From Candidatus Woesearchaeota archaeon B3_Woes (GTDB lineage: Archaea > Nanobdellota > Nanobdellia > Woesearchaeales > B3-WOES), in assembly GCA_005222965.1 (NCBI GenBank), contig NJBG01000001.1, positions 394,323 through 435,060 of the forward strand: 40,738 nucleotides of DNA. The letters are read 5' to 3'. The translations under genes and the position numbers were made by a program. The notes under the pieces were generated by a model. It searched no databases and was not told the origin of the DNA. It worked only from the letters and a program-made list of their open reading frames with translations. Within the stretch, counting starts at the first letter, position 1. Each line of letters starts with the position of its first letter. Positions 4,255-39,819 of the stretch are shown in pieces.

Positions 4255-4255
4255 A

Positions 4256-7104: not shown

Positions 7105-7115
7105 AAGGTATACTT

Positions 7116-7742: not shown

Positions 7743-8034
7743 AAGTGAAAAAATATTAAAAGCTATATATGATGCAATTGATGAAGTTAATGATCAACTT
7801 CCAAAAGAACAAAGGTTATTAAAAAATAAAAATACAACTTTGTTTGGAAAATTAGATTCTCTTGGATTAGTAAACTTTATTATATTAGTAGAACAAAATA
7901 TAGAAAATTTGTTTAATAAAACAATAAATCTAAATAATGAAAAAACTTTATCAGGAGAACAAAGTCCACTAACAAACGTAAAAGCCCTTTTAGATTATAT
8001 AAGTTCAGATTTAGAGGAAAAACATAATGACTAA
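7735..8034 (+). CDS. Acyl carrier protein (ACP1)
   Basis: 99 aa; LFGKLDSLGLVNFI..VE with DSL phosphopantetheine site (Ser42, codon 7858-7860); near acpS and directly before FkbH. Confidence 0.88.
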   Translation: MDRSEKILKAIYDAIDEVNDQLPKEQRLLKNKNTTLFGKLDSLGLVNFIILVEQNIENLFNKTINLNNEKTLSGEQSPLTNVKALLDYISSDLEEKHND

Positions 8035-9703: not shown

Positions 9704-9712
9704 GAGGGAAAA

Positions 9713-15440: not shown

Positions 15441-16276
15441 AAACAATCTCAATTTGTAATAGAAAGATTGGTAAAGGAGAAAGGACATTTATCATTGCTG
15501 AAGCAGGTATAAATCATAATGGGGATATTAACATCGCTAAAAAATTGATTCACGAAGCAAAAAAAGCAGGTGCTGATGCTATAAAGTTTCAAACTTATAT
15601 TACTGAGAATAGGGTGCCAAAAGATAATCCTGTCTATAGTATACTTAAAAAAAGTGAACTGAATAAAGAACAAATAAATGTATTGAAAGAATTCGCTGAA
15701 CAAGAAGATATTATATTTTTTTCATCTCCTTTTGATGAAGAAAGTGTTGATGTTCTCTTAGATCTTAAAGTTCCACTTATTAAAATTACATCAATGCACG
15801 TAACTCATCTAAGATTATTAAGAAAAGTGGCCAAAACAAAAACACCAGTAATTATGTCAAGGGGAATGGCAAGCGTTAATGATATGGATAAAGCAATAGA
15901 AATTTTTGAAAAGTATGGCTGCCCTTACATTTTAATGCATTGTGTGTCATCATATCCTATGAAAGAGGAAGATGCTAATATTTCAATAGTAAGGACAATG
16001 ATTGAAAGGTATAAATGCCCTATAGGGTATTCTGATCATTCAAAAGGAATAAAAGTGCCTTTAATTGCTATAGCTGGTGGGGCAAATATTATTGAAAAAC
16101 ATTTTACACATGATAAAAAATATGATTGTGCTGATCAGATTTTATCTTCAGATCCCATGGAATTAAAAAAATTAGTAGATGAAGCAAGAAAAATTGAAAC
16201 AATTCTTGGTAAACCAGATATAAGACTTTTAGATTGTGAAAAAGGCACAGTACAATACAAGTTTAAGAGCAAATAA
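15434..16276 (+). CDS. NeuB-family nonulosonic acid synthase (short, apparently without the C-terminal SAF/AFP-like domain)
   Basis: IIAEAGINHNGD, GADAIKFQ, SPFD, MHCVSSYP, GYSDHS, IIEKHFT; ends at 280 aa. Confidence 0.9.
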   Translation: MVKTISICNRKIGKGERTFIIAEAGINHNGDINIAKKLIHEAKKAGADAIKFQTYITENRVPKDNPVYSILKKSELNKEQINVLKEFAEQEDIIFFSSPFDEESVDVLLDLKVPLIKITSMHVTHLRLLRKVAKTKTPVIMSRGMASVNDMDKAIEIFEKYGCPYILMHCVSSYPMKEEDANISIVRTMIERYKCPIGYSDHSKGIKVPLIAIAGGANIIEKHFTHDKKYDCADQILSSDPMELKKLVDEARKIETILGKPDIRLLDCEKGTVQYKFKSK

Positions 16277-16277
16277 T

Positions 16278-17045
16278 ATGAAAAATATTAAAATAGTCAC
16301 ACCAGTTTCGCATTTATTTAAGAATGATGGTAATAGGAAAATGATTATAGAAAATAGTGATTTGTTGGAATTGAGAGATAGTTCAATTCTTTTGGATTCT
16401 AATAATATTAAACTATACCATTCTGATTATAATTTAGTAACATTATTCGATAAAAATACTTTGAAGAGATTTGAAGAGTTTAAAGTTAGATATAATTTTG
16501 ATGCGATATCATTTCATCTTAGTTCAAAGTATAAAAAAAATAAGATAATAAATAATTCCTTTGTTGGTATTGGAAAACCATTAACAGAAACAGAAATGAA
16601 ATCGAATATTAAAAAGAATATTCAAACATTAAGAAAAATTTTTGATGATATCCCAATAATGGTGGAGAATAATAATCATTTAAAATCAGATGCATATGAT
16701 ATTATTACTGAACCTAGATTTATTAGTAAGATAGTGAATGAAAATAATATTTATTTTCTTTTTGATATTCCACACGCATTAATTTCCAAGATTAATACAA
16801 ATCAAGAAAATTATATTTCAAAATTGCCACTCAAACGAACATTGCAAATCCATATTAGCAAACATGGTTTCAAAAAAGGGGAGATAATAGATGCGCATGA
16901 AGAACTAAAAGAAGAGGATTGGAATTTTTTGAAGGAAACGATATCAAAAACTTTTAAACTTAAATATATTACAATTGAATATTATAAAAATGGAACAAAA
17001 TTAATAGAACAACTCAAAAGACTTAATCAAATAATAAAAAACTAA
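16278..17045 (+). CDS. Metal-binding TIM-barrel protein, DUF692 (MNIO)/xylose-isomerase-like
   Basis: Ordered candidate ligands LYH, ISFHL, MVENN, FLFDIPHA, QIHIS, DAH, TIEYY; ATG 16278 follows the NeuB stop. Confidence 0.65.
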   Translation: MKNIKIVTPVSHLFKNDGNRKMIIENSDLLELRDSSILLDSNNIKLYHSDYNLVTLFDKNTLKRFEEFKVRYNFDAISFHLSSKYKKNKIINNSFVGIGKPLTETEMKSNIKKNIQTLRKIFDDIPIMVENNNHLKSDAYDIITEPRFISKIVNENNIYFLFDIPHALISKINTNQENYISKLPLKRTLQIHISKHGFKKGEIIDAHEELKEEDWNFLKETISKTFKLKYITIEYYKNGTKLIEQLKRLNQIIKN

Positions 17046-20477: not shown

Positions 20478-21788
20478 ATGAAGAACAAAAAAGGAAAATT
20501 AATGTGGAACAAGGCAAAAGAATTAATTCCTGGAGGAACACAGCTACTGAGTAAAAGAGCAGAAAGGTTTTTGCCTGATAACTGGCCATCTTATTATAAA
20601 AAAGCAAAAGGTGTTAAAGTTGAAGATTTAGATGGAAATAACTATATTGACATGAGTATAATGGGGATTGGTAGTTGTGTGTTAGGTTATTCTGATGATG
20701 ATGTTAACAATGCTGTAAAAAAAGTTATTGATGAAGGTTCAATGTGCACTCTAAATTCTATTGAAGAAGTTGAATTAGCGGAATTATTATTAAAAATACA
20801 TCCCTGGGCTCAACAAGTTAGATATGCTAGAACAGGTGGAGAAGCAATGGCTATTGCTATAAGGATAGCTAGGGCTGCTTCAAAAAAGGAAAAAGTTGCT
20901 TTTTGTGGTTATCATGGTTGGCAAGATTGGTACTTATCATCTAATCTAAACAATAAAAAAAATCTGGATGGGCATTTGCTACCTGGGCTAAAACCAACTG
21001 GTGTTCCAAGAGGACTTTTAAATACAACTATTCCTTTTGAATATAATAAAATTGAGCAATTAAAAAAAATTGTAAAAAATAATGACATAGGAATAATTGT
21101 AATTGAACCTTTTAGACATCAAAACCCAAAGAATGGTTTTATTGAAAAAGTGAGAGAAATTGCGGATAAGAACAATATTGTGCTTATTTTTGACGAAATA
21201 AGTTCTGGTTGGAGGAATAATTTAGGAGGCATACACTTAGTTTACGATGTAATTCCTGATATTGTTGTTTATGCTAAAGCAATGAGTAATGGTTATCCAA
21301 TGGCTACAATTTTAGGTAAGAAAAAAGTAATGGATGTAGCACAAGATAGTTTTATTAGTAGTACATATTGGACAGAACGTATTGGTCCTACAGCAGCAAT
21401 AGCTACAATTAAAAAAATGAAAGAGAAAAAAGTTTTTGATCATATTAGTAAAATAGGTAACATGATTGGTGAAGGGTGGAAAAAATTAGCTAAAAAACAT
21501 AATCTTGATATATCAGTTAGAGGTCCAAATTCTTTAATCACTTTTTCATTTAATTATGAAAATGCAAATGAATTAAGAACATTATTCACCCAAGAGATGC
21601 TTAGAAATGGTTTTTTGGCTTCGTTGTGTGTTTATGTGTCATACAGTCATAAAAAAGAACATGTAGAAAAATACCTAAATAGTGTAGATGATGTTTTTGG
21701 TTTAATTAAATGCGCTTTAGAAAAAAACAATGTAAAAAATATGTTAGAAGGGCCAATAGCGAGCGATGATTTTAAAAGATTAACGTAA
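20478..21788 (+). CDS. Class III aminotransferase (glutamate-1-semialdehyde aminomutase-like, glycan-cluster type)
   Basis: IPGGTQLLSKR, DLDGNNYID, ARTGGEA, CGYHGWQDW, FDEISSGWR, AKAMSNGYP, ISSTYW. Confidence 0.87.
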   Translation: MKNKKGKLMWNKAKELIPGGTQLLSKRAERFLPDNWPSYYKKAKGVKVEDLDGNNYIDMSIMGIGSCVLGYSDDDVNNAVKKVIDEGSMCTLNSIEEVELAELLLKIHPWAQQVRYARTGGEAMAIAIRIARAASKKEKVAFCGYHGWQDWYLSSNLNNKKNLDGHLLPGLKPTGVPRGLLNTTIPFEYNKIEQLKKIVKNNDIGIIVIEPFRHQNPKNGFIEKVREIADKNNIVLIFDEISSGWRNNLGGIHLVYDVIPDIVVYAKAMSNGYPMATILGKKKVMDVAQDSFISSTYWTERIGPTAAIATIKKMKEKKVFDHISKIGNMIGEGWKKLAKKHNLDISVRGPNSLITFSFNYENANELRTLFTQEMLRNGFLASLCVYVSYSHKKEHVEKYLNSVDDVFGLIKCALEKNNVKNMLEGPIASDDFKRLT

Positions 21789-21876: not shown

Positions 21877-23346
21877 ATGAATGTATTATTAATAAATCCG
21901 CCGGTAAGAGAAGAGGTTCCTCCTGTCATATTTCCACTAGGAGTAGCCTATTTAGTTACATGTTTAAAAAGAGCCAAACATAATCCTGTTGTTGTCGATA
22001 TAGATGGGAATAGGTTTAATTACAATGAAGCATTAAAGATTATTAAAAAACATTTAGAAAAGAATAATATTGAAGCAATATGTACTGGTGGCCTTGTTAC
22101 AGTATATAAATACTGTAAGAGATTGACAAACGATATCAGAAAAATAAATCCTAACGTTCCTATAATAATTGGAGGAAGTCTTGCGTCATCAACTCCAGAA
22201 TTAGTTTTAGAAAAGATTAAACCAAATTATATTGTTTTTGGAGAAGGCGAAATTCCCCTAACAAATTTAATTAATTGTTTAGAAAAAAAGATAGAACCAA
22301 AAGATGTTAAAGGTATTGGTTTCAAAGAAAATAATAAGATCACGTTTACACCAAAAGAAGAACCACTAAATGAAGAATTTTTGAATAATCTTTTGCCAGA
22401 TTGGGATGAATTTCCTATTGAAAAATATATTAAATATCCAAATACAGATTGTGGTACTAAAAAAAGTATGGGTGTAACTTCAATGAGGGGTTGCCCTTTT
22501 AGATGTAAATATTGTTATCATATATTTGAAAAAACAAGAATGCGTTCTCCTGAATCATTAGTAAATGAAATAAATATATTAAAGAGAAAATATAGTGTTG
22601 AACACATAATCTTTTCAGACGACCTTTTTACAGTTAGTCGTAAAAGAGTAGAAAAGTTATGTGAACTAATAGTAAAACAAAAACTTAATGTTACATGGAG
22701 TTGTTGTTCTAGAGTAAATTTAGTAGATTTAGATTTATTAAAGAAGATGAAAAAAGCAGGGTGTATTCTTATTGGATATGGTTTTGAATCTGGGAGTCAA
22801 AAAATTTTAGATTTAATGGGTAAAAGAGCAAAAGTGGAAGAAGGAGAAAAAGCTATAGAGATGACAAGAAAAGCAGGAATTTCTATTAGGGGGGCGTTTA
22901 TGATAGGTTTCCCTGGGGAAACAAAAGAGACATTTGAAGAGACTATCCAATTTTGCTTAAGAAATAACTTGACCACTTATTTTTCATTCACAGATCCTTA
23001 TCCTGGAACAGAAATATTTTATAGCTGTGAAATTGAAAAAAAGATGGATTTAGAAAAATTTGTAGAGAATATAGGAGAACAAGTTACATTAAGAGTCAAT
23101 CTCACAGATCTACCCGATAAAGAATTATTAGAAATGTGTGATAAAGGAGAAAAAAAGATAGCTAAGGCAGGTGTAATTCAGAATTTTCCATTAAATATTC
23201 TTCTTTTTCCTTTTTTTGTTCTTGGAATTAAAAAATACGCTACTGCAATAACACAATCTAAACAACTTGGTTTTGGTATGTTTCTCAAATTAAACATCTA
23301 TTATTTGAATTATAAAATCAAAATGGTTTTATCAAAATTCTTTTAA
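21877..23346 (+). CDS. B12-binding-domain radical SAM protein
   Basis: FPLGVAYL, GEGE, RGCPFRCKYC, DDLF, GFESGSQ, FMIGFPGET, PYPGT. Confidence 0.92.
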   Translation: MNVLLINPPVREEVPPVIFPLGVAYLVTCLKRAKHNPVVVDIDGNRFNYNEALKIIKKHLEKNNIEAICTGGLVTVYKYCKRLTNDIRKINPNVPIIIGGSLASSTPELVLEKIKPNYIVFGEGEIPLTNLINCLEKKIEPKDVKGIGFKENNKITFTPKEEPLNEEFLNNLLPDWDEFPIEKYIKYPNTDCGTKKSMGVTSMRGCPFRCKYCYHIFEKTRMRSPESLVNEINILKRKYSVEHIIFSDDLFTVSRKRVEKLCELIVKQKLNVTWSCCSRVNLVDLDLLKKMKKAGCILIGYGFESGSQKILDLMGKRAKVEEGEKAIEMTRKAGISIRGAFMIGFPGETKETFEETIQFCLRNNLTTYFSFTDPYPGTEIFYSCEIEKKMDLEKFVENIGEQVTLRVNLTDLPDKELLEMCDKGEKKIAKAGVIQNFPLNILLFPFFVLGIKKYATAITQSKQLGFGMFLKLNIYYLNYKIKMVLSKFF

Positions 23347-23352
23347 ATAAAA

Positions 23353-24912
23353 ATGGATAAAGATAGGATAGTTATGTTTGGATTGGATTGTGCGTCTTAT
23401 AATATTATTAATCAACTAATTAAAGAAAATAAATTGCCGAATTTTGGAAAGATTATAAATAATGGTTGTTTTGGTATGTTAAAAAGTGTAGAACCAGTAT
23501 CATCTGCGCCTGCCTGGGTTTCTTTTATGACAGGTAAGAATCAAGGAAAACACGGTATATATGCTTGGTTTAAGACGGATCCTAAACTCTATAACGATAG
23601 AGGGAAATTGCTTAATGCGTTTGATATTGATAGTAAAACAATATGGGAGATTTTAGGTAAAAAATCTGGGTGTATAAATATGCCTTTTACTTATCCTTAC
23701 TTTAAGACCACTAAATTTATGGTGTCTGGTTTTCCAAGACCTTCATTCGAAAAAGCAGTATATCCAAAGAAGCTTTTAAAAGAGTTAAAGGAATATGAAA
23801 CTGAAGATCTTCCATCTATAAAGAACAAGACAGAATATTTAAAAAAAATTTATAAAAATGATGAAAAAGTTTTTAATCTTTTTTTATACTTTCTGAACAA
23901 GAACAAAAATCTTGATTTTTTATGTTGTGTAATTGATAATCTCGATAAAATGAGTCATCATTTTTGGGATGATGAAAAAGTTTTATTTAATTACTACAAT
24001 CATCTTGATAAGAAAATAGGTATGTTGTTAAACAAACTTGAAAAAAATGATACATTATTCATTCTTTCTGACCATGGTGCTAATGCTACTCCTACAAAAA
24101 AGTTTTATTTCAATAAATGGCTCAAAGAAAAAGGATTATTAAAATTAGAAAATAAACAATTTTTTGATTTTGGTTACTGGATGGCAAAACTTCGTATAAG
24201 TAAATCAAGCTTAGAGAAAGTTATATATAAATTAGGATTATTACGTTTTGTTGCGAAAAATATATCAAATCAGAATAAAGCAAAAATGGAAAATATGCTC
24301 CCTCCTTTTTCATATATAGATTGGAATCAGACTAAAATGTATTACACAAAAACCAATGCACATTCTCCATATGAGGGAATTAATATAAATTCAAAAGGCA
24401 AAAAACCAAAAGGAATTGTTGATGAAAAAGAGTATGAAAAATTAAGAGAATCTATGATTGCAGAATTAAAAGAATTAAAAGACCCAAATACTAATAAAAA
24501 GATTGTTGAATGGGTTTGTAAAAGAGAGGAATTATATAAAGGAAAACACACTAAAGAAAGACCAGACATAATACTTAAATTAAAAGAAGATTATACTGGC
24601 GAAATTGATATTAAAAATAAGTTAGTTGAGAATTTTAAAATAAGTATCCCTGGGGAGCATCATGTTGAAGGAATTTTTATGGCTTATGGAGAAAATATAA
24701 AAAAAGAGTTTATAAAAGGAGCTGAGCTTATTGATGTTACCCCAACAATTCTTCACATGCTTAATATTCCAATTCCTTCTGATATAGATGGTAAAGTTTT
24801 AAAAATATTTGACAAAGACTCTGATTTTGAAAAAAGAGATGTAAAAATAAATTCTAAGACTGATATAGAAAAAGAGCACATAAACGATATTCTTAAAGAT
24901 ATTAAATTTTGA
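23353..24912 (+). CDS. AlkP superfamily protein (type I phosphodiesterase/nucleotide pyrophosphatase-like)
   Basis: FGLDCA, PVSSAPAWVSFMTGKNQGKHG, DKMSHHFW, LSDHG, GEHHVEGIF, DVTPTIL, DGKVL. Confidence 0.87.
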   Translation: MDKDRIVMFGLDCASYNIINQLIKENKLPNFGKIINNGCFGMLKSVEPVSSAPAWVSFMTGKNQGKHGIYAWFKTDPKLYNDRGKLLNAFDIDSKTIWEILGKKSGCINMPFTYPYFKTTKFMVSGFPRPSFEKAVYPKKLLKELKEYETEDLPSIKNKTEYLKKIYKNDEKVFNLFLYFLNKNKNLDFLCCVIDNLDKMSHHFWDDEKVLFNYYNHLDKKIGMLLNKLEKNDTLFILSDHGANATPTKKFYFNKWLKEKGLLKLENKQFFDFGYWMAKLRISKSSLEKVIYKLGLLRFVAKNISNQNKAKMENMLPPFSYIDWNQTKMYYTKTNAHSPYEGININSKGKKPKGIVDEKEYEKLRESMIAELKELKDPNTNKKIVEWVCKREELYKGKHTKERPDIILKLKEDYTGEIDIKNKLVENFKISIPGEHHVEGIFMAYGENIKKEFIKGAELIDVTPTILHMLNIPIPSDIDGKVLKIFDKDSDFEKRDVKINSKTDIEKEHINDILKDIKF

Positions 24913-24928
24913 TTACTAATCCATAAGC

Positions 24929-24977
24929 TTTATATAACAATTATATGTAATTATATGTAATTAATATATATGAGGTG
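24929..24977 (+). promoter_or_regulatory. TATA box TTTATATA (24929-24936), tandem 10-bp repeat AATTATATGT x2.5 (24939-24963) and SD GAGGTG (24972-24977) upstream of the RHH gene
   Basis: Read directly from sequence. Confidence 0.55.
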
Positions 24978-24981
24978 CAAA

Positions 24982-25203
24982 ATGGATAATAAATATACAA
25001 CCATTACAATACCGACAACACTTGCAGAAAAACTTAAAGAAAGAACAAAAGGAACAGGGTTTAGTTCTTTATCGAGTTATGTAACCTATATCTTAAGGCA
25101 GATTGTTTCTAGTACAAAGAAAAAAGAAGATAAAGAAGCTTTTAGTGAAGAAGACGAGAAAAAGGTAAAAGACAGATTGAGAGGTTTAGGATACATTGAA
25201 TAA
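24982..25203 (+). CDS. CopG/ribbon-helix-helix small regulator with C-terminal RLxxLGY tail
   Basis: YTTITIPTTLAEKLKER...GFSSLSSYVTYILRQ; ATG 24982 preferred to 24970 because of the GAGGTG SD. Confidence 0.8.
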   Translation: MDNKYTTITIPTTLAEKLKERTKGTGFSSLSSYVTYILRQIVSSTKKKEDKEAFSEEDEKKVKDRLRGLGYIE

Positions 25204-26365
25204 AAAACTTAATTTAATCTTTATCACAATAGATGGAGCAAGACAAGATAGACTAGATATTTCTAAGAAGTTTAGATATTTAATAGACAAAGGGGTTTAT
25301 TTTTCTCAGATGATTACTTGTGCACCTTATACTTTGTCTTCGATGTATGCTATATTTTCTGGAATGTATCCTTCAAAAAATGGTGTTGATTCTTATTACA
25401 ATATGTTTAAATTTAAAGAAGATACATGCAAAACTTTAACAGAATATTTTAAAGAAGAGGGATATTACACAAAAGGTGATTTTCTAAATGATGCTACAAT
25501 GCCTAATCAAGGTTTTGATGAAGTCACAATTCATAATGAACATAAAGATGATTTTTTGAAATTACATCAAAAATATTTGAAAAAAGTCCATCAAATTAAT
25601 AAAAAAGGTAAGAACTTCTTTTTATATTTACATTATAGTAATATACATACTTCAATTGTCAAAAATGTAATTAAAAAATATTCTGATTTTGATGATGTTT
25701 ATTTTAATAGCACAAATCAAAATATCAAAAAATATAATGGTTATTTAATGACAGCAGGAAATTATGCTAAACAAATGTATGAAACCATTAAACAACTTGG
25801 ATTACTTAAAAATACATTAGTAGTTTTTGTTTCTGATCATGGTATAAGTAATGGTGAAAAAAAAGGGGAAAGGTGTTATGGTTCTTTTCTATATGATTAT
25901 ACTCTTAAATCTTTTGCTATTTTTATGTTTCCAAATAAGATGAATAAAGAAGTTAAAGAAGTCACTAGAACTGTTGATATCACCCCATCCATACTTGACT
26001 TTTTTGGATTCCCTGAGGATGATTCATATGAAAAAATTCAGGGAAAATCTCTTTTTCCTTTAATCAAAAGGAAAGAAAACTCTAAAAGAATAGCTTTTGC
26101 TGAAACTGGTGGTTTAAATGGACCTTGGCCCTCTCATAAAAAATCGAATGTTAAATGTGTAAGAAGCGATGAATGGAAATTAATTCATAATGAAACACCA
26201 AATACTTGGGAATTATATAATATAAAAAAAGATAAAAACGAAGTTAAAAATGTCATATCAAAATATCCAAAAATAAAAAAGAAAATGGAAGATCAATTAA
26301 ATAAAATAGTAAATGATTGTAAAACACCTAAAATCGAGATTCCAATTGAATTAATCAAAAAATAA
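25196..26365 (+). CDS. Sulfatase-like AlkP superfamily hydrolase/transferase (Thr at the nucleophile position)
   Basis: ITIDGARQD, APYTLSSM..IFSGMYP, FFLYLHY, VSDHG, VDITPSILD, QGKSL, WKLI, ELYN. TTG start overlaps the RHH gene end. Confidence 0.85.
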   Translation: MNKKLNLIFITIDGARQDRLDISKKFRYLIDKGVYFSQMITCAPYTLSSMYAIFSGMYPSKNGVDSYYNMFKFKEDTCKTLTEYFKEEGYYTKGDFLNDATMPNQGFDEVTIHNEHKDDFLKLHQKYLKKVHQINKKGKNFFLYLHYSNIHTSIVKNVIKKYSDFDDVYFNSTNQNIKKYNGYLMTAGNYAKQMYETIKQLGLLKNTLVVFVSDHGISNGEKKGERCYGSFLYDYTLKSFAIFMFPNKMNKEVKEVTRTVDITPSILDFFGFPEDDSYEKIQGKSLFPLIKRKENSKRIAFAETGGLNGPWPSHKKSNVKCVRSDEWKLIHNETPNTWELYNIKKDKNEVKNVISKYPKIKKKMEDQLNKIVNDCKTPKIEIPIELIKK

Positions 26366-26375
26366 GGGGATTGAA

Positions 26376-26846
26376 ATGAAAATTAACAAAAAGAAAAGCA
26401 ACAAATCTAAATGTAATAAACCTATAATCGTATATGTATATGTTTGCGGGGATATAATTCATGAAGGTCATTTATTGCAACTGGAAAATGGCAAAGCTTT
26501 AGGAGATAAACTAATAGTTGGTGTATTGACGGACGAAGCAGTAATGGAAAAAAAATCAAGACCAATATTACCTTTTAGAGAAAGACTAAGATTAATACAA
26601 TCTATAAAATGTGTTGATTGTGCTGTTCCTCAACATGAATATTCTCCTATGAATAATTTAATAGCTATACAACCTGATATTCATATGGAAAGTGCTAGCC
26701 ATTTAGGAAATAAATATCTTAGGGACTTGAAAAAAGTATTTAAGGGTAGAATTGTGATGACCCCCTATTACCCTGAACAATCAAGTACAGATATAAAGAA
26801 TAGAATAAAACAAAAACATAAAATAAAAATAAATAGAGGGTGTTAA
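26376..26846 (+). CDS. HxGH cytidylyltransferase (TagD-like; resembles the CyTase domain fused to PEP mutases)
   Basis: VYVCGDIIHEGH, LIVGVLTDEA, RERL, VDCAVPQ, PYYPEQSST. Confidence 0.85.
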   Translation: MKINKKKSNKSKCNKPIIVYVYVCGDIIHEGHLLQLENGKALGDKLIVGVLTDEAVMEKKSRPILPFRERLRLIQSIKCVDCAVPQHEYSPMNNLIAIQPDIHMESASHLGNKYLRDLKKVFKGRIVMTPYYPEQSSTDIKNRIKQKHKIKINRGC

Positions 26847-26850
26847 TAAA

Positions 26851-27744
26851 ATGAAAAAAACAATGGTAATTAGTGCATTTTTAGGTTTGATGTTGTTTTT
26901 AGTAGGATGTCAAACAGAAAACAAAGGTGAAATAGAAGTTATAAAAATGGGTTTAATACCTGCAGATGATTCAGATGAAATGTTAAGAAATTATGAACCT
27001 ATAAAAGATTATTTATCTAAACAATTAGGTATTCCTGTAGAAATACAAGTAACATCTGATTATACTGCTGCTATTGAGGCTATGAGAGCAAAACATATTG
27101 ATATGGCTTGGTTTGGACCATTTTCATATGTTATAGCTGCAAATGTTGCAGGAGCAGAAGCCATAGTAAATGGAGTTAAAGAAAGTACAGGAAGTGCAAC
27201 ATATAAATCCTTAATAATTGCAAATAAAGATAGTGGAATAAAAACTTTAGAAGATTTAAAAGGAAAAACATTTGCCTTTGTAGACCCAGCTTCAACTTCA
27301 GGTAATCTTATTCCAAGAAAGATGTTAATTGAAAACGAGATAGATCCTGACAACGATTTTAGTACTAGCTATTATGCTGGAACACATAATGCAGTTCAGT
27401 ATGCAATATCTAATGGTAAAGTGGATGCTGGTGCTAGCGGTGATAATGTTTATTATAGGATGATTGAAGCAGGAGAAATTGATTCTGAAGTAAATGTAAT
27501 TATTCATGAATCAGAACCAATTCCAGGTTCACCAATTGTTGTTAGAGATGATTTACCTGAAGCACTAAAGAAAGGTATTCAAAATGCTTTGATTAGTATG
27601 GACCAACAAACAATCCATAAAGTTGATGGGTGGGGGGGCATAGCAAGTTATCAAGCAGTATCTGACAGTGATTATGATGTAATCAGAGAAACTGCAATAC
27701 TGTTAGGCATGGATGTAACAAGTGCAGAGGCTGCTAACAAATAA
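26851..27744 (+). CDS. phnD: Phosphonate/phosphite ABC transporter substrate-binding lipoprotein
   Basis: Lipobox-like LFLVGC; DYTAAIEAM, GPFSY, DPASTSGNLIP, GTH, IPGSPIVVR, DYDVIRE. Confidence 0.92.
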   Translation: MKKTMVISAFLGLMLFLVGCQTENKGEIEVIKMGLIPADDSDEMLRNYEPIKDYLSKQLGIPVEIQVTSDYTAAIEAMRAKHIDMAWFGPFSYVIAANVAGAEAIVNGVKESTGSATYKSLIIANKDSGIKTLEDLKGKTFAFVDPASTSGNLIPRKMLIENEIDPDNDFSTSYYAGTHNAVQYAISNGKVDAGASGDNVYYRMIEAGEIDSEVNVIIHESEPIPGSPIVVRDDLPEALKKGIQNALISMDQQTIHKVDGWGGIASYQAVSDSDYDVIRETAILLGMDVTSAEAANK

Positions 27745-27773
27745 AATAATTTATTTTTTTATTTTTAATTAAA

Positions 27774-28547
27774 ATGATAAAAATAGAGAACTTAAGTCAT
27801 ACTTATAAGAACCGAGAAGAAGAAGCTGTAAAAAACATCAATCTTCATATTGAACAAGGAGAAAGTTTAGTTATAATTGGTTCAAGCGGTTCTGGTAAAT
27901 CTACCCTACTTAAATGTATTAATAGATTGATAGAACCAACTTCTGGGAAGATTCTTATAAAAAAAGAGGATATAATCAATTGCGACATTAAAAAAGTCAA
28001 TACAATAAGAAGCAAGATTGGAATGATTTTCCAAAATTTTAATCTTCTTGAAAGAGAAACTGTTCTAAAGAATGTTTTAAATGGAAGATTAAGATATAAT
28101 ACTTCTTTTAATACGATTCTAGGAAGATTTTCTAAAGAAGATTATGAGATAGTAAAAGAAAATCTTAAACGAGTAGGATTAGAAGAGTATAAACATGAAA
28201 GAGTTAATAATCTGAGCGGTGGCCAAAAACAAAGGGTTGCAATAGCAAGAGCTTTATCACAGAAACCAGAAGTTATTCTTGCAGATGAACCAGTGTCCAG
28301 TTTAGATCCAAAATTAATGAAAGAAATAATGGATTTATTAAAAAGTATATGTGATGAGGACGGTATAACATTAGTTACAAGTTTACATTTCCTTGAATTT
28401 GCTAAGAGATATGGTTCAAGAATAGTGGGAATGAAAGATGGTGAAATAGTTTTTAATGGAAAACCAGAAGATCTTACAGAAAAAGATATTGTTGATATTT
28501 ATGGTAAAACAAAAGAATGGAATCTCTATGGTAAAATTGGTTTTTAA
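27774..28547 (+). CDS. phnC: Phosphonate ABC transporter ATP-binding protein
   Basis: GSSGSGKST, IGMIFQNFNL, NVLNGRL, LSGGQKQRVAIARAL, LADEPVSSLDP, SLH. Confidence 0.92.
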   Translation: MIKIENLSHTYKNREEEAVKNINLHIEQGESLVIIGSSGSGKSTLLKCINRLIEPTSGKILIKKEDIINCDIKKVNTIRSKIGMIFQNFNLLERETVLKNVLNGRLRYNTSFNTILGRFSKEDYEIVKENLKRVGLEEYKHERVNNLSGGQKQRVAIARALSQKPEVILADEPVSSLDPKLMKEIMDLLKSICDEDGITLVTSLHFLEFAKRYGSRIVGMKDGEIVFNGKPEDLTEKDIVDIYGKTKEWNLYGKIGF

Positions 28548-28549
28548 AG

Positions 28550-29341
28550 ATGAAATTAAAAAAATTAAAAAATAAATACAAAGGATTATTTATTGGGTTA
28601 TTAATAGTTATAATTTATTATTGGGCTATTAATGGAACAAACACCAGTCCTTCTAATTTTGTTAAAGGTATCCCATTTATGATGGATTTTATAGGTAGAA
28701 TGTTCCCTCCTGATATAAGCAATTTAGGAACTTTTTTACTTAAAGCTCTTGAAACATTACAAATGGCTATTGTTGGTTCAACATTGGGAGCTTTGATTGC
28801 TTTGCCTTTATCTTTTTTAGCGGCAAGGAACATTATGTCAAACAAATTTGTGTATCATAGTGTAAGAAGTATTTTTGATGCTTGTAGGGGAATAAATGAA
28901 GTTGTATGGGGTCTTATATTTGTTTCAATGGTGGGTTTGGGTCCTTTCCCTGGTGTTTTGGCTCTCACAGTTCATGTTACAGGAGCTTTAGGAAGATATT
29001 TCTCAGAATCAATAGAAACAGTTGATCCAGAGGTGATTAAAGCTATCATCTCAACAGGAGCGAATAAAATGCAAGTTATTACTAGAGGGATTTTTCCTCA
29101 GGTTAAACCATTATTTATTAATTATGCTCTTTATTATTTAGAAAATAATTTCAGAGCAGCAACAGTCTTAGGACTAGTTGGAGCAGGGGGAATTGGTATG
29201 GAATTATTAACCAGCATGAGACTTTTTAGAAATCAAGAAGTTTTGACTATTTTGATTATTATGGTGTTAATGGTTACAGTGATAGATAGATTTAGTGCAT
29301 ATATAAGAAAGAATATTGTGAAAGTAGAAAGTTTAGAATAA
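28550..29341 (+). CDS. phnE: Phosphonate ABC transporter permease
   Basis: MFPPD, ETLQMAI, GLGPFPGVLAL, ESIETVD, ENNFRAATVLGLVGAGGIG. Confidence 0.92.
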   Translation: MKLKKLKNKYKGLFIGLLIVIIYYWAINGTNTSPSNFVKGIPFMMDFIGRMFPPDISNLGTFLLKALETLQMAIVGSTLGALIALPLSFLAARNIMSNKFVYHSVRSIFDACRGINEVVWGLIFVSMVGLGPFPGVLALTVHVTGALGRYFSESIETVDPEVIKAIISTGANKMQVITRGIFPQVKPLFINYALYYLENNFRAATVLGLVGAGGIGMELLTSMRLFRNQEVLTILIIMVLMVTVIDRFSAYIRKNIVKVESLE

Positions 29342-29344
29342 AAA

Positions 29345-29352
29345 TTTATAAA
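29345..29352 (+). promoter_or_regulatory. Candidate archaeal TATA box TTTATAAA
   Basis: 23 nt before ATG 29376; same spacing as at other genes in the window. Confidence 0.4.
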
Positions 29353-29375
29353 GAATAAAAACTAATAAAGATACG

Positions 29376-30068
29376 ATGAAAGCAATTATTTTAGCAGCTG
29401 GGAAATCAACAAGATTGTTACCTTTAACTAAAGATATACCCCAATGTTTATTAAAAGTTTACAACAAAACTATTTTAGAAGAACAGATCGAATCTCTAAA
29501 AAGCTCAGGTATTAATGATATAGTTGTGATTATTGGTTATCTTTCAGAGAAAGTAGAAGAATTTTGTAAAAAAAAGGGTATTAAAACTTTATTTAATCCT
29601 TTTTTTGAAGTTTCTGGAATGGCTATGTCATTGTGGGTAGCAAAAGAAGAGTTGAAAAAAGGTTTTATATTTCTTTATTCGGATGTTTTATTTGATGCAA
29701 AAATAATACAAGATTTATTAACAGATAAAACTGATATTTGTTTAGCTATAAAAAAGAACGGTTTAAGAGAAGAAGCAGAAAAAGTTATTGAAAAACAAGG
29801 TATAATTAAAAGAATAACTAAATCCAAGTTAGACAAAGAAAATGGGGAATTTATCGGAATTGCAAAATTCTCACCTAATGGAACTACTAAATTAATAAAA
29901 GAATTAAATAATTTAGCAAAGAAGGATCTTAATATTTCATTTATATCTGCACTTGACAATCTCATAAACAAAGGAGAGGAAATCAATGCTTGTGATATAA
30001 AAGATGCAAAATTTATAGATATCGATTTTCCAGAAGATTTAGAAAAAGCAAAAAAATTATTTGAATAA
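29376..30068 (+). CDS. LicC/PntC-like NTP transferase (phosphocholine/phosphonate cytidylyltransferase family)
   Basis: MKAIILAAGKSTRL.PLT..IPQCLL, GYL.EK, LYSDVLF, GEFIGIAKF, IDIDFPEDL. Confidence 0.8.
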   Translation: MKAIILAAGKSTRLLPLTKDIPQCLLKVYNKTILEEQIESLKSSGINDIVVIIGYLSEKVEEFCKKKGIKTLFNPFFEVSGMAMSLWVAKEELKKGFIFLYSDVLFDAKIIQDLLTDKTDICLAIKKNGLREEAEKVIEKQGIIKRITKSKLDKENGEFIGIAKFSPNGTTKLIKELNNLAKKDLNISFISALDNLINKGEEINACDIKDAKFIDIDFPEDLEKAKKLFE

Positions 30069-30071
30069 AAT

Positions 30072-31562
30072 TTAGATAACTCTTTTAACTATTTTTTTTA
30101 CCTCTTTTATTGTTAATAAATTGAACAAGAATACAAGAACTATATAGATTAATCCCACTATTCCAAAAATAATAATTATTTCAAGATAAACATTCAAAAC
30201 AAGAGCATATTTAAGATAAGATATTAGTGATATAAAAATTAATCCTATAAATAAACTCTTAGTCCAATATTTAAAAGGGATATGTATTTTTACTAGTTTT
30301 TTTAAGTTTGATATGCTTAATCCCATCATTAACAAATAACCAAAGAAAGTTGTAATTGCTGCTCCCATCATGCCATACAATGGGATTAGAATAAAATTTA
30401 ATATTAAGTTGAATATTGCTCCAATTAATATTATTCTTGCGTTAAGTTTGGGTTTACCAATACCTGAAATAGCGCTAAAATTAATTCTAGTAATTGTCAT
30501 CAATATAACGCCTAAAGAGAGTATTCTTAAGACATTGCTTGCTTGTATGTATGTATTTCCAAAAAGAATGTTAAGAATTGTCTCTGGAAAAGAAAACATT
30601 GTTAATGCTATTGGAAATATTGTAATAAACGAATATTTGTAAAGGGTGTTTATACCTTCTATCAATTGTTTTTTATGGCCTTTTGTCCACAATTCTGAAG
30701 ACAATGGGAAAAGTACAGTCATCAAGGCTATACTAAAATATCCCAAAACATTTGCCGTTGGCAAAGCTGCATTATACAATCCAACTTGATCTAATCCAGA
30801 AAAATAAGTTAGCATTAAAGTGTCTGTGTGGTTGAGTATCATTATACCAACAACCATAAGCATTAAAGGAGCACCAAATAATACGAGCTTTTTCATTAAA
30901 TTTTTATCAAAAGAGTACTTTAATTTTGAAAACAAGGGGAATGTTTTTTTAAAAAAGAAAAAATAAAAGAAAGGAAGCAAGATTAATGGTGCGAATAAAT
31001 AAGCTATAGTAGGTACTAAAATATTTTTTCCAAATAAGATGAAACCACCAGATGCAATAATGAATATAAGGAAAGTTCTCAAAAAATCTACAAAAGCAAA
31101 ATATTTCATCTTTTGGAATCCTTGAAAAATATAAACCAAAAGAGACAAAAAAGAACGGAAAAAGAATATAAAAGCAAAAAGTTTGATTATCAAAGATGCT
31201 TGAAGATTGTGAAAATAATTAAGTGCTAAAAAATCTGAAGATGCAAATAATATAATTACTATTATGGTAGAAATAACAAGTTGTATGATACTTACATTAA
31301 TTATTGAATTTTTTATTAAGTTGAATTTTTTATTGGTTTTAAATTCAGGAATAAATTTTACTAAAGCTTGGCCAGTTCCAAGATTATTAAAAATAATAGA
31401 AAAAATTGATAAAGAATATATTGCATAAAACATACCATATTCTGTTTGTGTTAAATTTCTAGCCAAAAGCAATCTAAGGAGATACCCAAAAAAAGCAGAA
31501 AGAACACTTATTATAAATACATATCCTGCACCATGTATCGCCTTCTTTGTATAGTTAGTCAT
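30072..31562 (-). CDS. Wzx-type oligosaccharide flippase (MOP superfamily)
   Basis: LARNLTQTEYG, TDTLML, VGLYNAA, NFILIPLYGMMGAAITT; many hydrophobic segments. Confidence 0.92.
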   Translation of the reverse strand: MTNYTKKAIHGAGYVFIISVLSAFFGYLLRLLLARNLTQTEYGMFYAIYSLSIFSIIFNNLGTGQALVKFIPEFKTNKKFNLIKNSIINVSIIQLVISTIIVIILFASSDFLALNYFHNLQASLIIKLFAFIFFFRSFLSLLVYIFQGFQKMKYFAFVDFLRTFLIFIIASGGFILFGKNILVPTIAYLFAPLILLPFFYFFFFKKTFPLFSKLKYSFDKNLMKKLVLFGAPLMLMVVGIMILNHTDTLMLTYFSGLDQVGLYNAALPTANVLGYFSIALMTVLFPLSSELWTKGHKKQLIEGINTLYKYSFITIFPIALTMFSFPETILNILFGNTYIQASNVLRILSLGVILMTITRINFSAISGIGKPKLNARIILIGAIFNLILNFILIPLYGMMGAAITTFFGYLLMMGLSISNLKKLVKIHIPFKYWTKSLFIGLIFISLISYLKYALVLNVYLEIIIIFGIVGLIYIVLVFLFNLLTIKEVKKIVKRVI

Positions 31563-34491: not shown

Positions 34492-36369
34492 TTATATTAC
34501 TTTTAAAATTATTACACTCTGTGTTTGATATGAAGATTCAAATCTAGTTGAATTTTGAAGATTTTTGAATAAATTATCAAAAGAGGTTTTTGTTTTATTC
34601 TCACCATATTGTCTTCCTAAATGTTTGTAAGACAACCCAGATATAACGATGTATTGGTATTTGTTTGTTTTTAAAAAATTATAAACTTGTGTTAAGTTTT
34701 TATCTAAAATGTTTTTTCTAAAGTCAATAACATTACTACACCATTCACAACTATATTTGTCAAACCCAATTATTGGTTTATCTGTTGTAGAATATGTAAA
34801 AACTTTCGTATCTATAGGTAAAGTTGTAAGCCAAATATACCCTTGTAGTTCTTCGTTTGATGTCCAAAAAACGCCAGGTGGCCACACAGCATTGTGGTTT
34901 TGGTTATATTTTTGATAACCTGCTGTTGAAATCACACCTATTAAAATTATAAATAGTACTAACAAATAAGGTATTTTAAATTTTTTCGTCAGTTTGAATA
35001 GAGACCAAAGACCTAATGAAGAGAGTAAAGCTACTGGAACTGCCAATAATAACCAAAATCTAAATGCAAATAAACCTATTGGAAGGTTAAAAGTCATAGA
35101 ATTTGTTCCAAGAAAAGTAAAAACAAACCATAATAAAGTGATAGTAATCCAAATTCTATCTTTTTTCAATAAATTTTTATATTTTAATAAAGAATATACA
35201 ATTCCTATTAATAACAAGAAGGTTATAAACACCCCCCACCCAAGATGGATATTAATACCTCCAAAAGGTTTTGTGATAAAAAAGTCATTAAATGTATAAG
35301 ACCTAGTGGCTGTTCCCATTGTAGGTGAAAAAGCAGATTGTATTTTTGAAAAGAAAGTTGTAGAAGTTGTTATATCTATATCGCTTATTCTTATTTGTGA
35401 CAAAAACATTGATTTCCATTTTCCTATCCACCAAATAAAAGAAAGCAAAAGCCCTCCTATTTCTGCGATTAAAATTTCTTTTAATAAGTTTTTTTCAATA
35501 ATCGCCTTTACTAACCAATATACACCAAACATTATACCAATCTTTATAGATTGGGATGGGTGAATCAATAATATAGAAGATATAACAACCATTGAAGGAT
35601 AAATCCATTTTTTATCTCGTTTTATCATTTCTAAACAATATATTGCTGGAAAAAACAACATAATTGATAAAGAAAGTGCCCAAATAAAATGTGTAAAATA
35701 AGATGGTAACGCAGCCAATATAAAGGTTGAAAATAAAGCTTTATTTTTATCTCCAGTAAATATTTTAGCAAAGAAATAGAAAAATAAGATCCCTAAGGAA
35801 ATTATTAACCCATTAAAGAATTTTAAAGTCCAGTTTAATGAAGGAGCGGTTTGATGTAATATCCCCATTAATAAATCATATCCTGGTGGATATGGGTCAA
35901 TATATTGAAAATCAAAATTTTGTGGTTCGTATACTGTTTTTTCTAATGATATATATTTAACGCTTAATGCATGATCCCAGGGATCATCATTTTCAAGATA
36001 AGGGTATTGGAAAGCTCCCCCCACGTACATTCGAAGGCAAAAAAAGAAGATAATTAAAACGAAAAGTATGTTTAAATTTGATTTTGTTAGTTTAAATTTG
36101 GTTTTTGGTTTTTTGAATTCTTTTAATTTTATTTTTTTAAATAGAATGAATAAAGGATATATCAAACTTAACACAAAGAATATTTTCCAATCAAGTGGAA
36201 TTCTCAAGAGATTGAGAAAAACACCCAGAAAAACAAAAGCTCCAATACCAATACCAATTCTTATTAAATTTCTCTCAAAAAAATTGTTTGAATTTTTTAA
36301 AAAATAAGTTATAGTAAATCCTAACCCATATGTGTATACAAAAAATAATAGTACTGTTATTACGCTCAT
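34492..36369 (-). CDS. Polytopic membrane protein, GT-C fold glycosyltransferase-like
   Basis: Many TM segments; loop ENDDPWDH...YPPG after the N-terminal TMs; soluble C-terminal domain. Confidence 0.55.
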   Translation of the reverse strand: MSVITVLLFFVYTYGLGFTITYFLKNSNNFFERNLIRIGIGIGAFVFLGVFLNLLRIPLDWKIFFVLSLIYPLFILFKKIKLKEFKKPKTKFKLTKSNLNILFVLIIFFFCLRMYVGGAFQYPYLENDDPWDHALSVKYISLEKTVYEPQNFDFQYIDPYPPGYDLLMGILHQTAPSLNWTLKFFNGLIISLGILFFYFFAKIFTGDKNKALFSTFILAALPSYFTHFIWALSLSIMLFFPAIYCLEMIKRDKKWIYPSMVVISSILLIHPSQSIKIGIMFGVYWLVKAIIEKNLLKEILIAEIGGLLLSFIWWIGKWKSMFLSQIRISDIDITTSTTFFSKIQSAFSPTMGTATRSYTFNDFFITKPFGGINIHLGWGVFITFLLLIGIVYSLLKYKNLLKKDRIWITITLLWFVFTFLGTNSMTFNLPIGLFAFRFWLLLAVPVALLSSLGLWSLFKLTKKFKIPYLLVLFIILIGVISTAGYQKYNQNHNAVWPPGVFWTSNEELQGYIWLTTLPIDTKVFTYSTTDKPIIGFDKYSCEWCSNVIDFRKNILDKNLTQVYNFLKTNKYQYIVISGLSYKHLGRQYGENKTKTSFDNLFKNLQNSTRFESSYQTQSVIILKVI

Positions 36370-38324: not shown

Positions 38325-38332
38325 TTTATATA
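38325..38332 (+). promoter_or_regulatory. Candidate TATA box TTTATATA
   Basis: 23 nt before ATG 38356, supporting that start over 38332. Confidence 0.4.
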
Positions 38333-38355
38333 TGTTTATTCTGTTTCTTAAATTT

Positions 38356-39819
38356 ATGAAAATTTTAATAATACACCCCCCTTGGCCAGGTCCAGGATTT
38401 GGTCTTAGGAGCCAGAATAGGTGGCCTAGGAAAAGAGGCGATAAAACTAACAGATATCCTATTTATCTTTGTTATACTGCTACATTACTTAAGAATAAAG
38501 GGCATAATGTAAAATATATAGATAGTGTTTATCAAAATCTCAACTATAAATCGACTTTAATCGAGATCATCAAATTTAAACCAGATGTGTTATTTTTTGA
38601 GACATCTACTCCTACCTTTGATTATGATTGCTCTTTTGTTGATATGGTTAAAAAAAGAATTCCTAATTTAAAAATAGTAGTCGCTGGTACACATGTTACT
38701 TTTGACCCTATTGGATCTATCAAAAAAAGTAAGATTGATGTTGTAATTAAAGGGGAACAAGATTTCACAACATTAAATGTTATGAATGCTTTTAAAAATT
38801 CCAAATCATTAAAAAATATCAAAGGCATTTGTTATAAGTATAAGAATAAGATTATTAATAATCCTCAAGCACCATTAATAAAAGATCTTGATAGTTTGCC
38901 TTTTCCAGATAGAGATCTTATACCGCATCAATGGTACATCGAAGGGCATGTTAAGTACACTCCTTTTACATTTGTTATGGGTTCTAGAGGGTGTCCTAAC
39001 AAATGTACTTTTTGTTTGTGGCCTCACGTTTATTACAACCACACAGTTAGATTTAGATCCCCTGTCAATATATGTGACGAGCTTGAATGGCTCATAAAAA
39101 AATATGGGATTAAAGAAGTTTTTTTTGATGATTCTACATTTAATGTAAACGAAAAGAGGGCTATAGATATTTCAAAAGAAATTATTAAGAGGGATATAAA
39201 AATAGTTTGGTCATGTAGTGCCAGAGTCGATAAAGTTAGTAAAGAGATGTTATATTGGATGAAAAAAAGCGGATGCAAATTAATTTGTTATGGGGGCGAG
39301 TCTGCAAATCCTGAAACTTTAAAGAAAACAGATAAAAAAATTACTCTAGAACAAATAAGAAAGGCAATTAAACTTACAAAGGAATCTAAAATCATAGCTC
39401 ATGCTAATTTTATGATTGGTTTTCCTTGGGAAACAAAAAAAGATATGGAAAAAACAATTGAGTTTGGGATTAAAACAGACCCAGATACAATCCAATTTTC
39501 ACTTGTTTTCCCTCATCCAGGTTCAAAAATGTATAAAGAAGCTGTGGAAAAAGAGTGGTTTTATGAAGAAGTATTTGATCATATGGATATGTTTGATATG
39601 ACAAAAGGGCCTATACTAAAAACAAAAATACCTAAAAAAGAGTTAATGAAAATAGTAAATAAATCTCATGCAAAATTTTTTTTAAGACCCAATTATATAT
39701 TAAAAAACATATATAAAATAAGAGATAAAAAAGAATTATTTAGAGTTCTTAAAGGGGCAAAGAGCGTTATAAAAGGCAAGATTTTATTTAATATATTTAA
39801 AAAGAATAAACTAAATTAA
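38356..39819 (+). CDS. B12-binding-domain radical SAM protein (HpnJ-like N-terminus)
   Basis: MKILIIHPP...RWP...YPIYL, TSTPT, SRGCPNKCTFC, FFDDSTF, FMIGFPWET, PHPGS. Confidence 0.9.
   Translation: MKILIIHPPWPGPGFGLRSQNRWPRKRGDKTNRYPIYLCYTATLLKNKGHNVKYIDSVYQNLNYKSTLIEIIKFKPDVLFFETSTPTFDYDCSFVDMVKKRIPNLKIVVAGTHVTFDPIGSIKKSKIDVVIKGEQDFTTLNVMNAFKNSKSLKNIKGICYKYKNKIINNPQAPLIKDLDSLPFPDRDLIPHQWYIEGHVKYTPFTFVMGSRGCPNKCTFCLWPHVYYNHTVRFRSPVNICDELEWLIKKYGIKEVFFDDSTFNVNEKRAIDISKEIIKRDIKIVWSCSARVDKVSKEMLYWMKKSGCKLICYGGESANPETLKKTDKKITLEQIRKAIKLTKESKIIAHANFMIGFPWETKKDMEKTIEFGIKTDPDTIQFSLVFPHPGSKMYKEAVEKEWFYEEVFDHMDMFDMTKGPILKTKIPKKELMKIVNKSHAKFFLRPNYILKNIYKIRDKKELFRVLKGAKSVIKGKILFNIFKKNKLN

Follow-up and report, generated by a model that had tools for sequence, protein, structure and literature searches.

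The 40,738-nucleotide stretch of the Candidatus Woesearchaeota archaeon B3_Woes genome analysed here (contig NJBG01000001.1, positions 394,323 to 435,060; hereafter the window) contains an operon in which the genes of a PhnDCE importer lie between two predicted nucleotidyltransferase genes. The reading to which we incline is that this DPANN-type archaeon scavenges a ready-made phosphonate, activates it with cytidine monophosphate (CMP) and attaches it to its surface. The phosphonate would then be a surface head group and not food, since the cell appears able neither to make nor to cleave carbon-phosphorus (C-P) bonds. A lipid-anchored PhnD on the cell surface would capture a small external phosphonate, which PhnC and PhnE would import; a LicC-like transferase, a Fom1-like HxGH cytidylyltransferase, or both, would join this cargo to CMP. 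Some enzyme, for which a sulfatase-family protein and a TagF-like protein are candidates, would transfer the phosphonyl group to a glycan or to a lipid-linked precursor, and a Wzx-type flippase would turn the product outward. Gene identities, operon structure, missing genes, and the conserved linkage with its association to phosphonate genes in relatives are results of the analysis; what the cargo is, that the nucleotide is CMP, and which enzyme and acceptor serve attachment are inferred.

The six genes from 25196 to 30068, all on the + strand, form one tight operon with intergenic gaps of 10, 4, 29, 2 and 34 bases, in gene order. They encode a sulfatase-family protein of the AlkP superfamily (25196-26365; Pfam PF00884), a stand-alone HxGH cytidylyltransferase of 156 aa that resembles the Fom1 cytidylyltransferase (CyTase) domain and ethanolamine-phosphate cytidylyltransferase (ECT) (26376-26846; PF01467, CTP_transf_like, 4e-13), the lipoprotein-type substrate-binding protein PhnD (26851-27744; Phosphonate-bd, TIGR03431), the ATP-binding cassette (ABC) ATPase PhnC (27774-28547; ABC_tran, TIGR02315), the permease PhnE (28550-29341; BPD_transp_1, TIGR01097) and a LicC/PntC-like nucleotidyltransferase, NTPtr-B (29376-30068; PF00483 and PF12804, NTP_transferase/NTP_transf_3). 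A gene for a Wzx-type flippase (30072-31562, - strand; PF01943, Polysacc_synt) is convergent with the operon. The surroundings form a glycan island, with Pfam matches to glycosyltransferases of families GT1 and GT2, DegT aminotransferases, NeuB, epimerases and a TagF-like protein. An initial annotation had named the genes from 21877 to 31562 and had placed phnDCE between HxGH and LicC/PntC-like transferases, in a glycan island with a converging wzx; gene calls, Pfam and NCBIfam agree with these identities and coordinates, and Pfam confirms the arrangement. The window is AT-rich (GC content 0.23-0.31) and nearly all of its genes lie on the + strand.

All three transport proteins exceed the NCBIfam equivalog cut-offs (PhnD, 282.1 bits against 261.1 for TIGR03431; PhnC, 326.6 against 266.1 for TIGR02315; PhnE, 295.6 against 216.7 for TIGR01097), and together constitute a PhnCDE-type importer (TC 3.A.1.9). 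PhnD has an N-terminal signal peptide with the lipobox LVGC, which places it outside the cell. Its best 120 relatives share 68-84 % identity and carry the source names Woesearchaeota, Nanoarchaeota, archaeon and Patescibacteria. Comparison with the transporter of the E. coli C-P lyase pathway (PhnD structure 3P7I), a member of the same family, reveals that the six phosphoryl-binding residues, which we take to be Tyr47, Tyr93, Ser127, Thr128, Ser129 and His157 (an offset of 26 reproduces this list on the K-12 sequence), are kept and are invariant in 120/120 clade members. The residues around the tail of the ligand differ. Glu177 and Asp205 of E. coli PhnD hold the amine of 2-aminoethylphosphonate (AEP), as cited in PMC12718374, from the text of which the residue equivalences among PhnD-type binders were taken. 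Here this acidic pair is replaced by Asn199 (114/120 clade members) and Ser227 (120/120), and in all 30 clade loci of the genome scan described below the two positions hold N, T or S, and then S.

The best PDB matches of PhnD are the phosphite-binding PtxB proteins (5O2J, 5LV1 and 5JVB; 158-165 bits, the top match 165.5). In phosphite binders a capping Tyr (Tyr208 of Te_PtxB), which makes a P-H...pi contact, is strictly conserved (PMC5700983). Ser227 of PhnD aligns with Tyr208 of 5JVB, and PtxB-like import of phosphite was rejected as this residue is Ser in all clade members. In GpxB, another PhnD-type binder, the ligands are glycerol-1- and glycerol-3-phosphate, the hydroxyls of which are held by Arg223 and Thr247 (PMC12718374). 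According to a rival reading, the cargo here is likewise a phosphate ester (glycerol phosphate or another phospho-alcohol), which would be converted to a cytidine diphosphate (CDP)-alcohol and added to a glycan by a TagF-like enzyme, giving a teichoic-acid-like decoration. We regard this as rather unlikely. GpxB binds its ligands via polar residues at the same two positions that hold Asn and Ser in PhnD, which is in favour of the phosphate ester; however, Arg223 is not kept (Asn in PhnD, with Ser at the Thr247 position) and PhnD matches GpxB (9LF9) with only 54.6 bits, against 165.5 for PtxB.

In a quick maximum-likelihood tree of PhnD, the transferase-linked clade is a single branch (SH-aLRT 98) on the side that holds all eight C-P-lyase-linked PhnDs, and the 35 rows with a capping Tyr lie apart (SH-aLRT 97 for the split). 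In the wider PhnD set, seven loci whose tail positions hold a small residue and then Ser or Thr adjoin C-P lyase genes.

Both nucleotidyltransferases score below every NCBIfam equivalog cut-off. The best solved relative of NTPtr-B is LicC (1JYK, E 1.1e-21), with 6PD1, a PntC-AEPT fusion, in third place (E 1.7e-11), and the protein has the LicC-like PF12804 fold of PntC. Tyr101 aligns with Glu104 of Tde-PntC, a contact of the AEP amine, and so replaces the acidic residue of PntC; Glu196 is beyond the aligned stretch. The motif reads YSD in NTPtr-B, compared with ESD in PntC and DAD in LicC, and Tyr is present at the Glu104-equivalent position in 21/21 B-type and 24/25 A-type sequences. PntC is operationally defined by a gene near ppm (PMC6697681), and this genome has no ppm. 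In one related locus (L026) the NTPtr-B homologue is 48 bases from a gene for a fusion of CyTase and phosphoenolpyruvate (PEP) mutase.

The HxGH enzyme, the HEGH motif of which is visible in alignment, matches ECT (3ELB, 6.8e-16, N-terminal half), the Fom1 CyTase domain of fosfomycin biosynthesis (5X3D, 8.3e-14, residues 15-146) and TagD (1COZ, 4.4e-9). The match to TagD, with 51.9 bits for the TagD model TIGR01518, is a point for a phosphate-ester cargo, but the enzyme is nearer to the Fom1 domain and ECT than to TagD and is far under the TagD cut-off of 165.4, and it is the LicC-like enzyme, rather than the TagD-like one, that accompanies the importer most constantly. Family PF01467, the HxGH motif and the likeness to 5X3D agree with the Fom1 CyTase domain; relatives carry this domain fused to PEP mutase, whereas the HxGH enzyme here stands alone, at approximately 28-30 % identity to the fused domains of L013 and L026, and no protein was assigned as Fom3 or FomD. 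Homologues (45-87 % identity) are found directly 5' of phnD in L005, L008, L011, L016, L022 and L033. The transferases that Rice et al. found fused to Ppm or adjoining it are of two families, PF12804 and PF01467 (PMC6697681).

A scan of species genomes yielded 79 PhnD loci, of which 30 (L004-L033) have 61-84 % identity; in the remainder it falls to 44 % or less. Twenty-five of these clade loci are from small genomes (0.6-1.9 Mb, mostly labelled DPANN-type, with several labels, such as Methanosarcinales and Saccharibacteria, that look wrong for such genomes) and five are from Dehalococcoidia. Both phnC and phnE are kept in 28/30. An NTPtr-B homologue (39-73 % identity) occurs within 1 kb after phnE, on the same strand and mostly at 0-110 bases, in 19 of the 23 loci with room for it (800 bases or more beyond phnE). 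Upstream, 25 of the 28 loci with room have an HxGH or LicC-like transferase within 1.6 kb, and the four loci that lack NTPtr-B (L011, L013, L016 and L022) all have the HxGH enzyme upstream. With a looser count (any match within 4 kb), a transferase is present in 29/30 clade loci, compared with 0/49 more distant PhnD loci. The transferases are thus conserved neighbours of phnDCE in a single PhnD clade and not outside it, an outcome in favour of the neighbourhood that the initial annotation had singled out for a wider comparison.

These counts already contradict the proposal that phnDCE is a recent insertion, adjacent to the transferases by chance and without a functional tie to them, which we consider very improbable. 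For such an insertion it could be said that this PhnD has a counterpart in only 1/40 same-order relatives (27 % identity), that GC content is slightly raised over phnDCE (0.30-0.31, against 0.26-0.27 in the flanks) and that the segment has been exchanged in a metagenome contig, L098. However, the arrangement is found again in loci of DPANN-type archaea, of Dehalococcoidia and of contigs that bear the label Patescibacteria, and the replacement in L098 is another organophosphate transporter.

Across the genes for the phosphodiesterase, the sulfatase and Wzx, the DNA of L098 and that of the window are 85-88 % identical. Its gene order is phosphodiesterase, small open reading frame (ORF), sulfatase, HD-domain protein, HxGH enzyme (72 % identity), major facilitator superfamily (MFS) transporter and Wzx. 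The MFS gene (L098:3649-4848) encodes a 399-aa protein of the organophosphate:phosphate antiporter type, with GlpT (1PW4, 1.4e-19) as its best PDB match, and fills exactly the space of phnDCE and NTPtr-B (window 26851-30068); the exchanged stretch begins at the stop codon of the HxGH gene and ends at that of wzx. The HD-domain gene is inserted before the cytidylyltransferase gene; HD homologues are found inside the module of importer and transferases in L007, L016, L023 and L033, and elsewhere in the B3_Woes genome. The presence of two unrelated organophosphorus carriers at one position beside the same cytidylyltransferase argues that import feeds that enzyme. The likeness of the replacement to GlpT also keeps the phosphate-ester cargo alive.

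More broadly, we suggest, with some reserve, a portable cassette in small symbiotic archaea and some bacteria. An organophosphorus importer (PhnDCE, interchangeable with a GlpT-like MFS carrier) coupled to CMP activation would display on the envelope a scavenged head group of methyl- or hydroxyethylphosphonate type that the cells cannot make themselves, the source of which could be hosts or dissolved organic matter.

That the cargo is a phosphonate is suggested by related loci in which the module adjoins genes of phosphonate biosynthesis. In a survey of neighbours (142 ORFs of 15 loci, searched with Pfam and then NCBIfam), two loci proved to have a CTP_transf_like-PEP_mutase fusion immediately next to the module, L013 (TIGR02320, 394.8 bits, cut-off 319.55) and L026. 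In L025, a PEP mutase match appears from its coordinates to be on the module contig, next to an HxGH match, apparently as a third such fusion. This locus also encodes phosphonopyruvate decarboxylase (Ppd; 506.6 bits against a cut-off of 312.5), an iron-containing alcohol dehydrogenase (Fe-ADH) and a 419-aa protein with methylphosphonate synthase (MpnS; 6B9S, 2.9e-25) as its best PDB match and a weaker match to HepD (6B9R, 1.3e-10); the L026 copy of this MpnS-like protein is 37 % identical. A strong PEP mutase match is present in five of the 25 small module genomes and absent from the other 20, and the five Dehalococcoidia genomes have only weak matches (28-31 bits). Some relatives, a minority, thus have the module inside phosphonate operons; in most, this genome included, it occurs without them. 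That relatives share the operon with PEP mutase, Ppd and MpnS-like genes is a further argument against a phosphate ester. In none of the 142 neighbour proteins was a class-V aminotransferase domain detected by Pfam. Given this absence, the occurrence in relatives of genes for Ppd, Fe-ADH and an MpnS-like protein, and the lack of amine-binding acidic residues in both PhnD and the LicC-like transferase, the cargo is probably a neutral phosphonate of methylphosphonate or 2-hydroxyethylphosphonate type. AEP, offered as an example in the initial annotation, is disfavoured by the residues of these two proteins.

The claim that the window lacks PEP mutase and known catabolism genes can be extended to the whole genome (1,021,708 bases, 4 contigs, 96.23 % complete), an outcome likewise in favour of the initial annotation. 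PEP mutase (TIGR02320, PF13714) has no match in the genome, and Ppd has none in tblastn with the L025 protein as the query. Of the catabolism genes, those for the C-P lyase component PhnJ and the phosphonoacetate hydrolase PhnA (TIGR02335) have no match, and PhnX (best score 31.5 bits, cut-off 220) and PhnW (36.3 bits, cut-off 400.8) are below cut-off genome-wide; PhnY and PhnZ were not searched. No PtxD-type gene is situated near the operon, although PtxD was not specifically searched for; the sole strong 2-hydroxyacid dehydrogenase is approximately 200 kb away and looks generic. A possible second phosphonate island on contig 1 (58-76 kb), raised by tblastn matches to Fe-ADH and the HD protein, was dismissed, as the region contains AMP phosphorylase and unrelated genes. 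The best score for glycerol-1-phosphate dehydrogenase is 29.3 bits against a cut-off of 413, and the lack of a match over cut-off can be counted in favour of imported glycerol phosphate.

No PstS-type protein, Pit or Na/Pi carrier was found in the genome, and PhnE is its sole BPD_transp_1 permease. These absences would suit a nutritional role, in which PhnDCE is a general importer of phosphorus (phosphate, phosphite or organophosphates), cytoplasmic AlkP-family enzymes free phosphate, and the transferases are mere neighbours in a glycan island. PhnDCE of Mycobacterium smegmatis is phosphate-specific. As a precedent, PhnD1 of picocyanobacterial strains that lack catabolic genes has been proposed as a phosphate transporter (PMC10284923). 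We nevertheless regard a nutritional role as improbable. Among 40 same-order relatives, 35 lack both PstS and Pit and 39 lack this PhnD, which implies that the lineage obtains phosphorus in another way. Four of the five Dehalococcoidia module genomes also have PstS, the linkage to the transferases is tight (0-110 bases in most loci) and clade-specific, and a phosphonate could not yield phosphate here, as no C-P cleavage genes were found.

Attachment to the surface is the step for which the genome offers candidates in place of a recognized enzyme. One is the sulfatase-family protein encoded by the first gene of the operon, which lacks a signal peptide and has C-A-P-Y-T at what we take to be the CxPxR site of sulfatases. 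Homologues are located directly 5' of the module in L023 and L032 (43-44 % identity), a further one (89 %) is encoded in L098, and weaker paralogues occur in L025 and L032. This protein is a candidate transferase or, alternatively, a candidate phosphonate-ester hydrolase; among phosphonate gene clusters, one family has been described as including sulfatase genes (PMC8942020). The other candidate is the TagF-like protein (4232-6196, + strand; PF04464, E 1.1e-9). TagF-family members adjoin the module in three of the 15 related loci surveyed (L007, 246.6 bits; L026; L011), and their presence both there and in the window is also a point for a phosphate-ester cargo. A wzx gene is found near the module in L011, L013, L021, L024 and L032, and an 85 % identical homologue occupies the same place in L098.

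Several points weigh against a phosphonate destined for surface display. LicD (PF04991) has no match in the genome and no CDP-alcohol phosphatidyltransferase is encoded, which leaves attachment without a recognized enzyme; in the 15 related loci surveyed, a CDP-alcohol phosphatidyltransferase is near the module in eight and LicD in one. PhnD-family proteins can bind phosphate esters, as in GpxB (PMC12718374), and the binding residues of PhnD do not discriminate C-P from C-O-P. The MFS transporter of L098 is closest to GlpT, a glycerol-3-phosphate carrier. PhnDCE is the sole recognizable phosphorus importer of the genome, which fits a nutritional role too, and PstS occurs in only one of the 25 small module genomes, so that for DPANN such a role is only weakened. 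PEP mutase is found in no more than five of these 25 genomes, the completeness of which is not given, and the PhnD tree, obtained by a quick search, has long branches and is rooted at its midpoint.

The combination that we favour, of import, activation and display of a phosphonate, may be compared with two known systems. In the Pnt pathway (Rice et al., 2019; PMC6697681), LicC-like PF12804 and Fom1-like PF01467 transferases are likewise found beside glycan genes, with the same logic of CMP-phosphonate display. That pathway is defined around PEP mutase, whereas here an ABC importer replaces biosynthesis, Tyr stands at the position of PntC Glu104 and there is no LicD. In the pneumococcal lic pathway, an external head group is imported, a LicC-type enzyme activates it with cytidine triphosphate, and it is then added to a surface glycan. 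Here the importer is a PhnCDE-family ABC system instead of the LicB permease, and LicD is absent; the LicA kinase, which was not searched for, would be needless if the cargo already carries phosphorus. The import-activate-display logic of lic, on which the initial annotation was modelled, is supported by the missing pathway genes and the conserved linkage, with the display step argued from gene context and short of LicD or a CDP-alcohol phosphatidyltransferase; its details are corrected as to the cargo and the neighbours that belong to the system.

No description of a PhnDCE-fed tailoring pathway in prokaryotes was found in the literature searched. A diatom study reports AEP uptake, pointing to phospholipid synthesis (PMC9765203). 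Phosphonate biology has been mapped almost wholly via PEP mutase, and an inventory that starts from ppm neighbourhoods (PMC8942020) is blind to an importer-fed route without pepM. If the proposed pathway operates, pepM-based surveys would undercount phosphonate-bearing organisms, and phosphonate display would be uncoupled from phosphonate synthesis. A symbiont could then copy the surface chemistry of its host, and methyl- and hydroxyethylphosphonate would have a new sink in anoxic waters and sediments. The operon would also provide an assayable example of genome-reduced DPANN cells making their surface from scavenged parts.

Two genes upstream of the operon had been linked to it in the initial annotation, a B12-binding radical SAM enzyme (21877-23346, + strand; PF02310 and PF04055) and a second AlkP-superfamily protein, of the Phosphodiest family (23353-24912, + strand; PF01663). 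A 284-base gap between the phosphodiesterase and sulfatase genes assigns both to a separate, preceding transcription unit. The suggestion that AlkP-family enzymes bracket the system holds for the sulfatase, which recurs upstream of the module in L023 and L032, but not for the phosphodiesterase, a homologue of which is beside the module in none of the 30 loci. Conservation therefore gives no support for the latter as a member of the system. A metagenome scan with the phosphodiesterase as the query returned one locus, and L098 contains a homologue with 72-75 % identity. The sole PDB match of this protein is weak (E 6.6e-4). It was also considered as a phosphonoacetate hydrolase and rejected, TIGR02335 being without a match in the genome.

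Conservation does not single out the radical SAM enzyme either. It is one of three B12-binding radical SAM proteins encoded in the window (2827-4254, 21877-23346 and 38332-39819), and the radical SAM enzymes near the module in several related loci resemble the paralogues at 2827 and 38332 more; in the 30 loci, none matched that at 21877 best. The enzyme encoded at 21877 reaches no NCBIfam cut-off (177 bits for BchE, and 156 bits for the PhpK family, where the cut-off is 600) and has no informative solved relative, so that an assignment as Fom3- or PhpK-like found no support.

The 284-base gap holds a 77-aa ORF (24970-25203, + strand) with a counterpart in the same place in L098 (1077-1298). 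No Pfam family matches it over cut-off, and its identification as a ribbon-helix-helix regulator was dropped for want of Pfam support. In the stretch that holds this ORF (window 24913-25203), the ORF is preceded by a TATA-like tttatataa and a tandem ATTATATGTA, in two copies. The ORF may encode a small regulator, with its operator alongside.

Other genes of the window and of related loci are recorded here in their own right. Within the glycan island, a run at 6772-11404 encodes a phosphopantetheinyl transferase, a GNAT protein, a 99-aa ORF, an FkbH-domain protein, which scores 306 bits (cut-off 146.65), and a MaoC-SDR fusion. This looks like a route to an acyl or glyceryl unit borne by a carrier protein for sugar modification. 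An MNIO-family enzyme (MbnB/TglH/ChrH, known from peptide maturation) is encoded at 16236-17045, in a run of sugar-nucleotide genes beside NeuB. The nearest family of a class-III aminotransferase (20478-21788) is glutamate-1-semialdehyde aminomutase, with 252.5 bits (cut-off 486); tetrapyrrole synthesis is unlikely in this genome. In L009, a gene beside the module (6960-9755, - strand) encodes a 931-aa fusion of a pyruvate kinase barrel, a PUA-like domain, ATP sulfurylase and adenosine 5'-phosphosulfate (APS) kinase, with a sulfotransferase downstream, which suggests that this genome produces sulfated glycans. A 625-aa protein without a Pfam family is encoded at 34492-36369 (- strand) and has a 42 % identical homologue in L024, with a GT2 gene adjoining in both. 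A protein atlas groups it with Woesearchaeota clusters named as PMT-like mannosyltransferases, which is a lead only.

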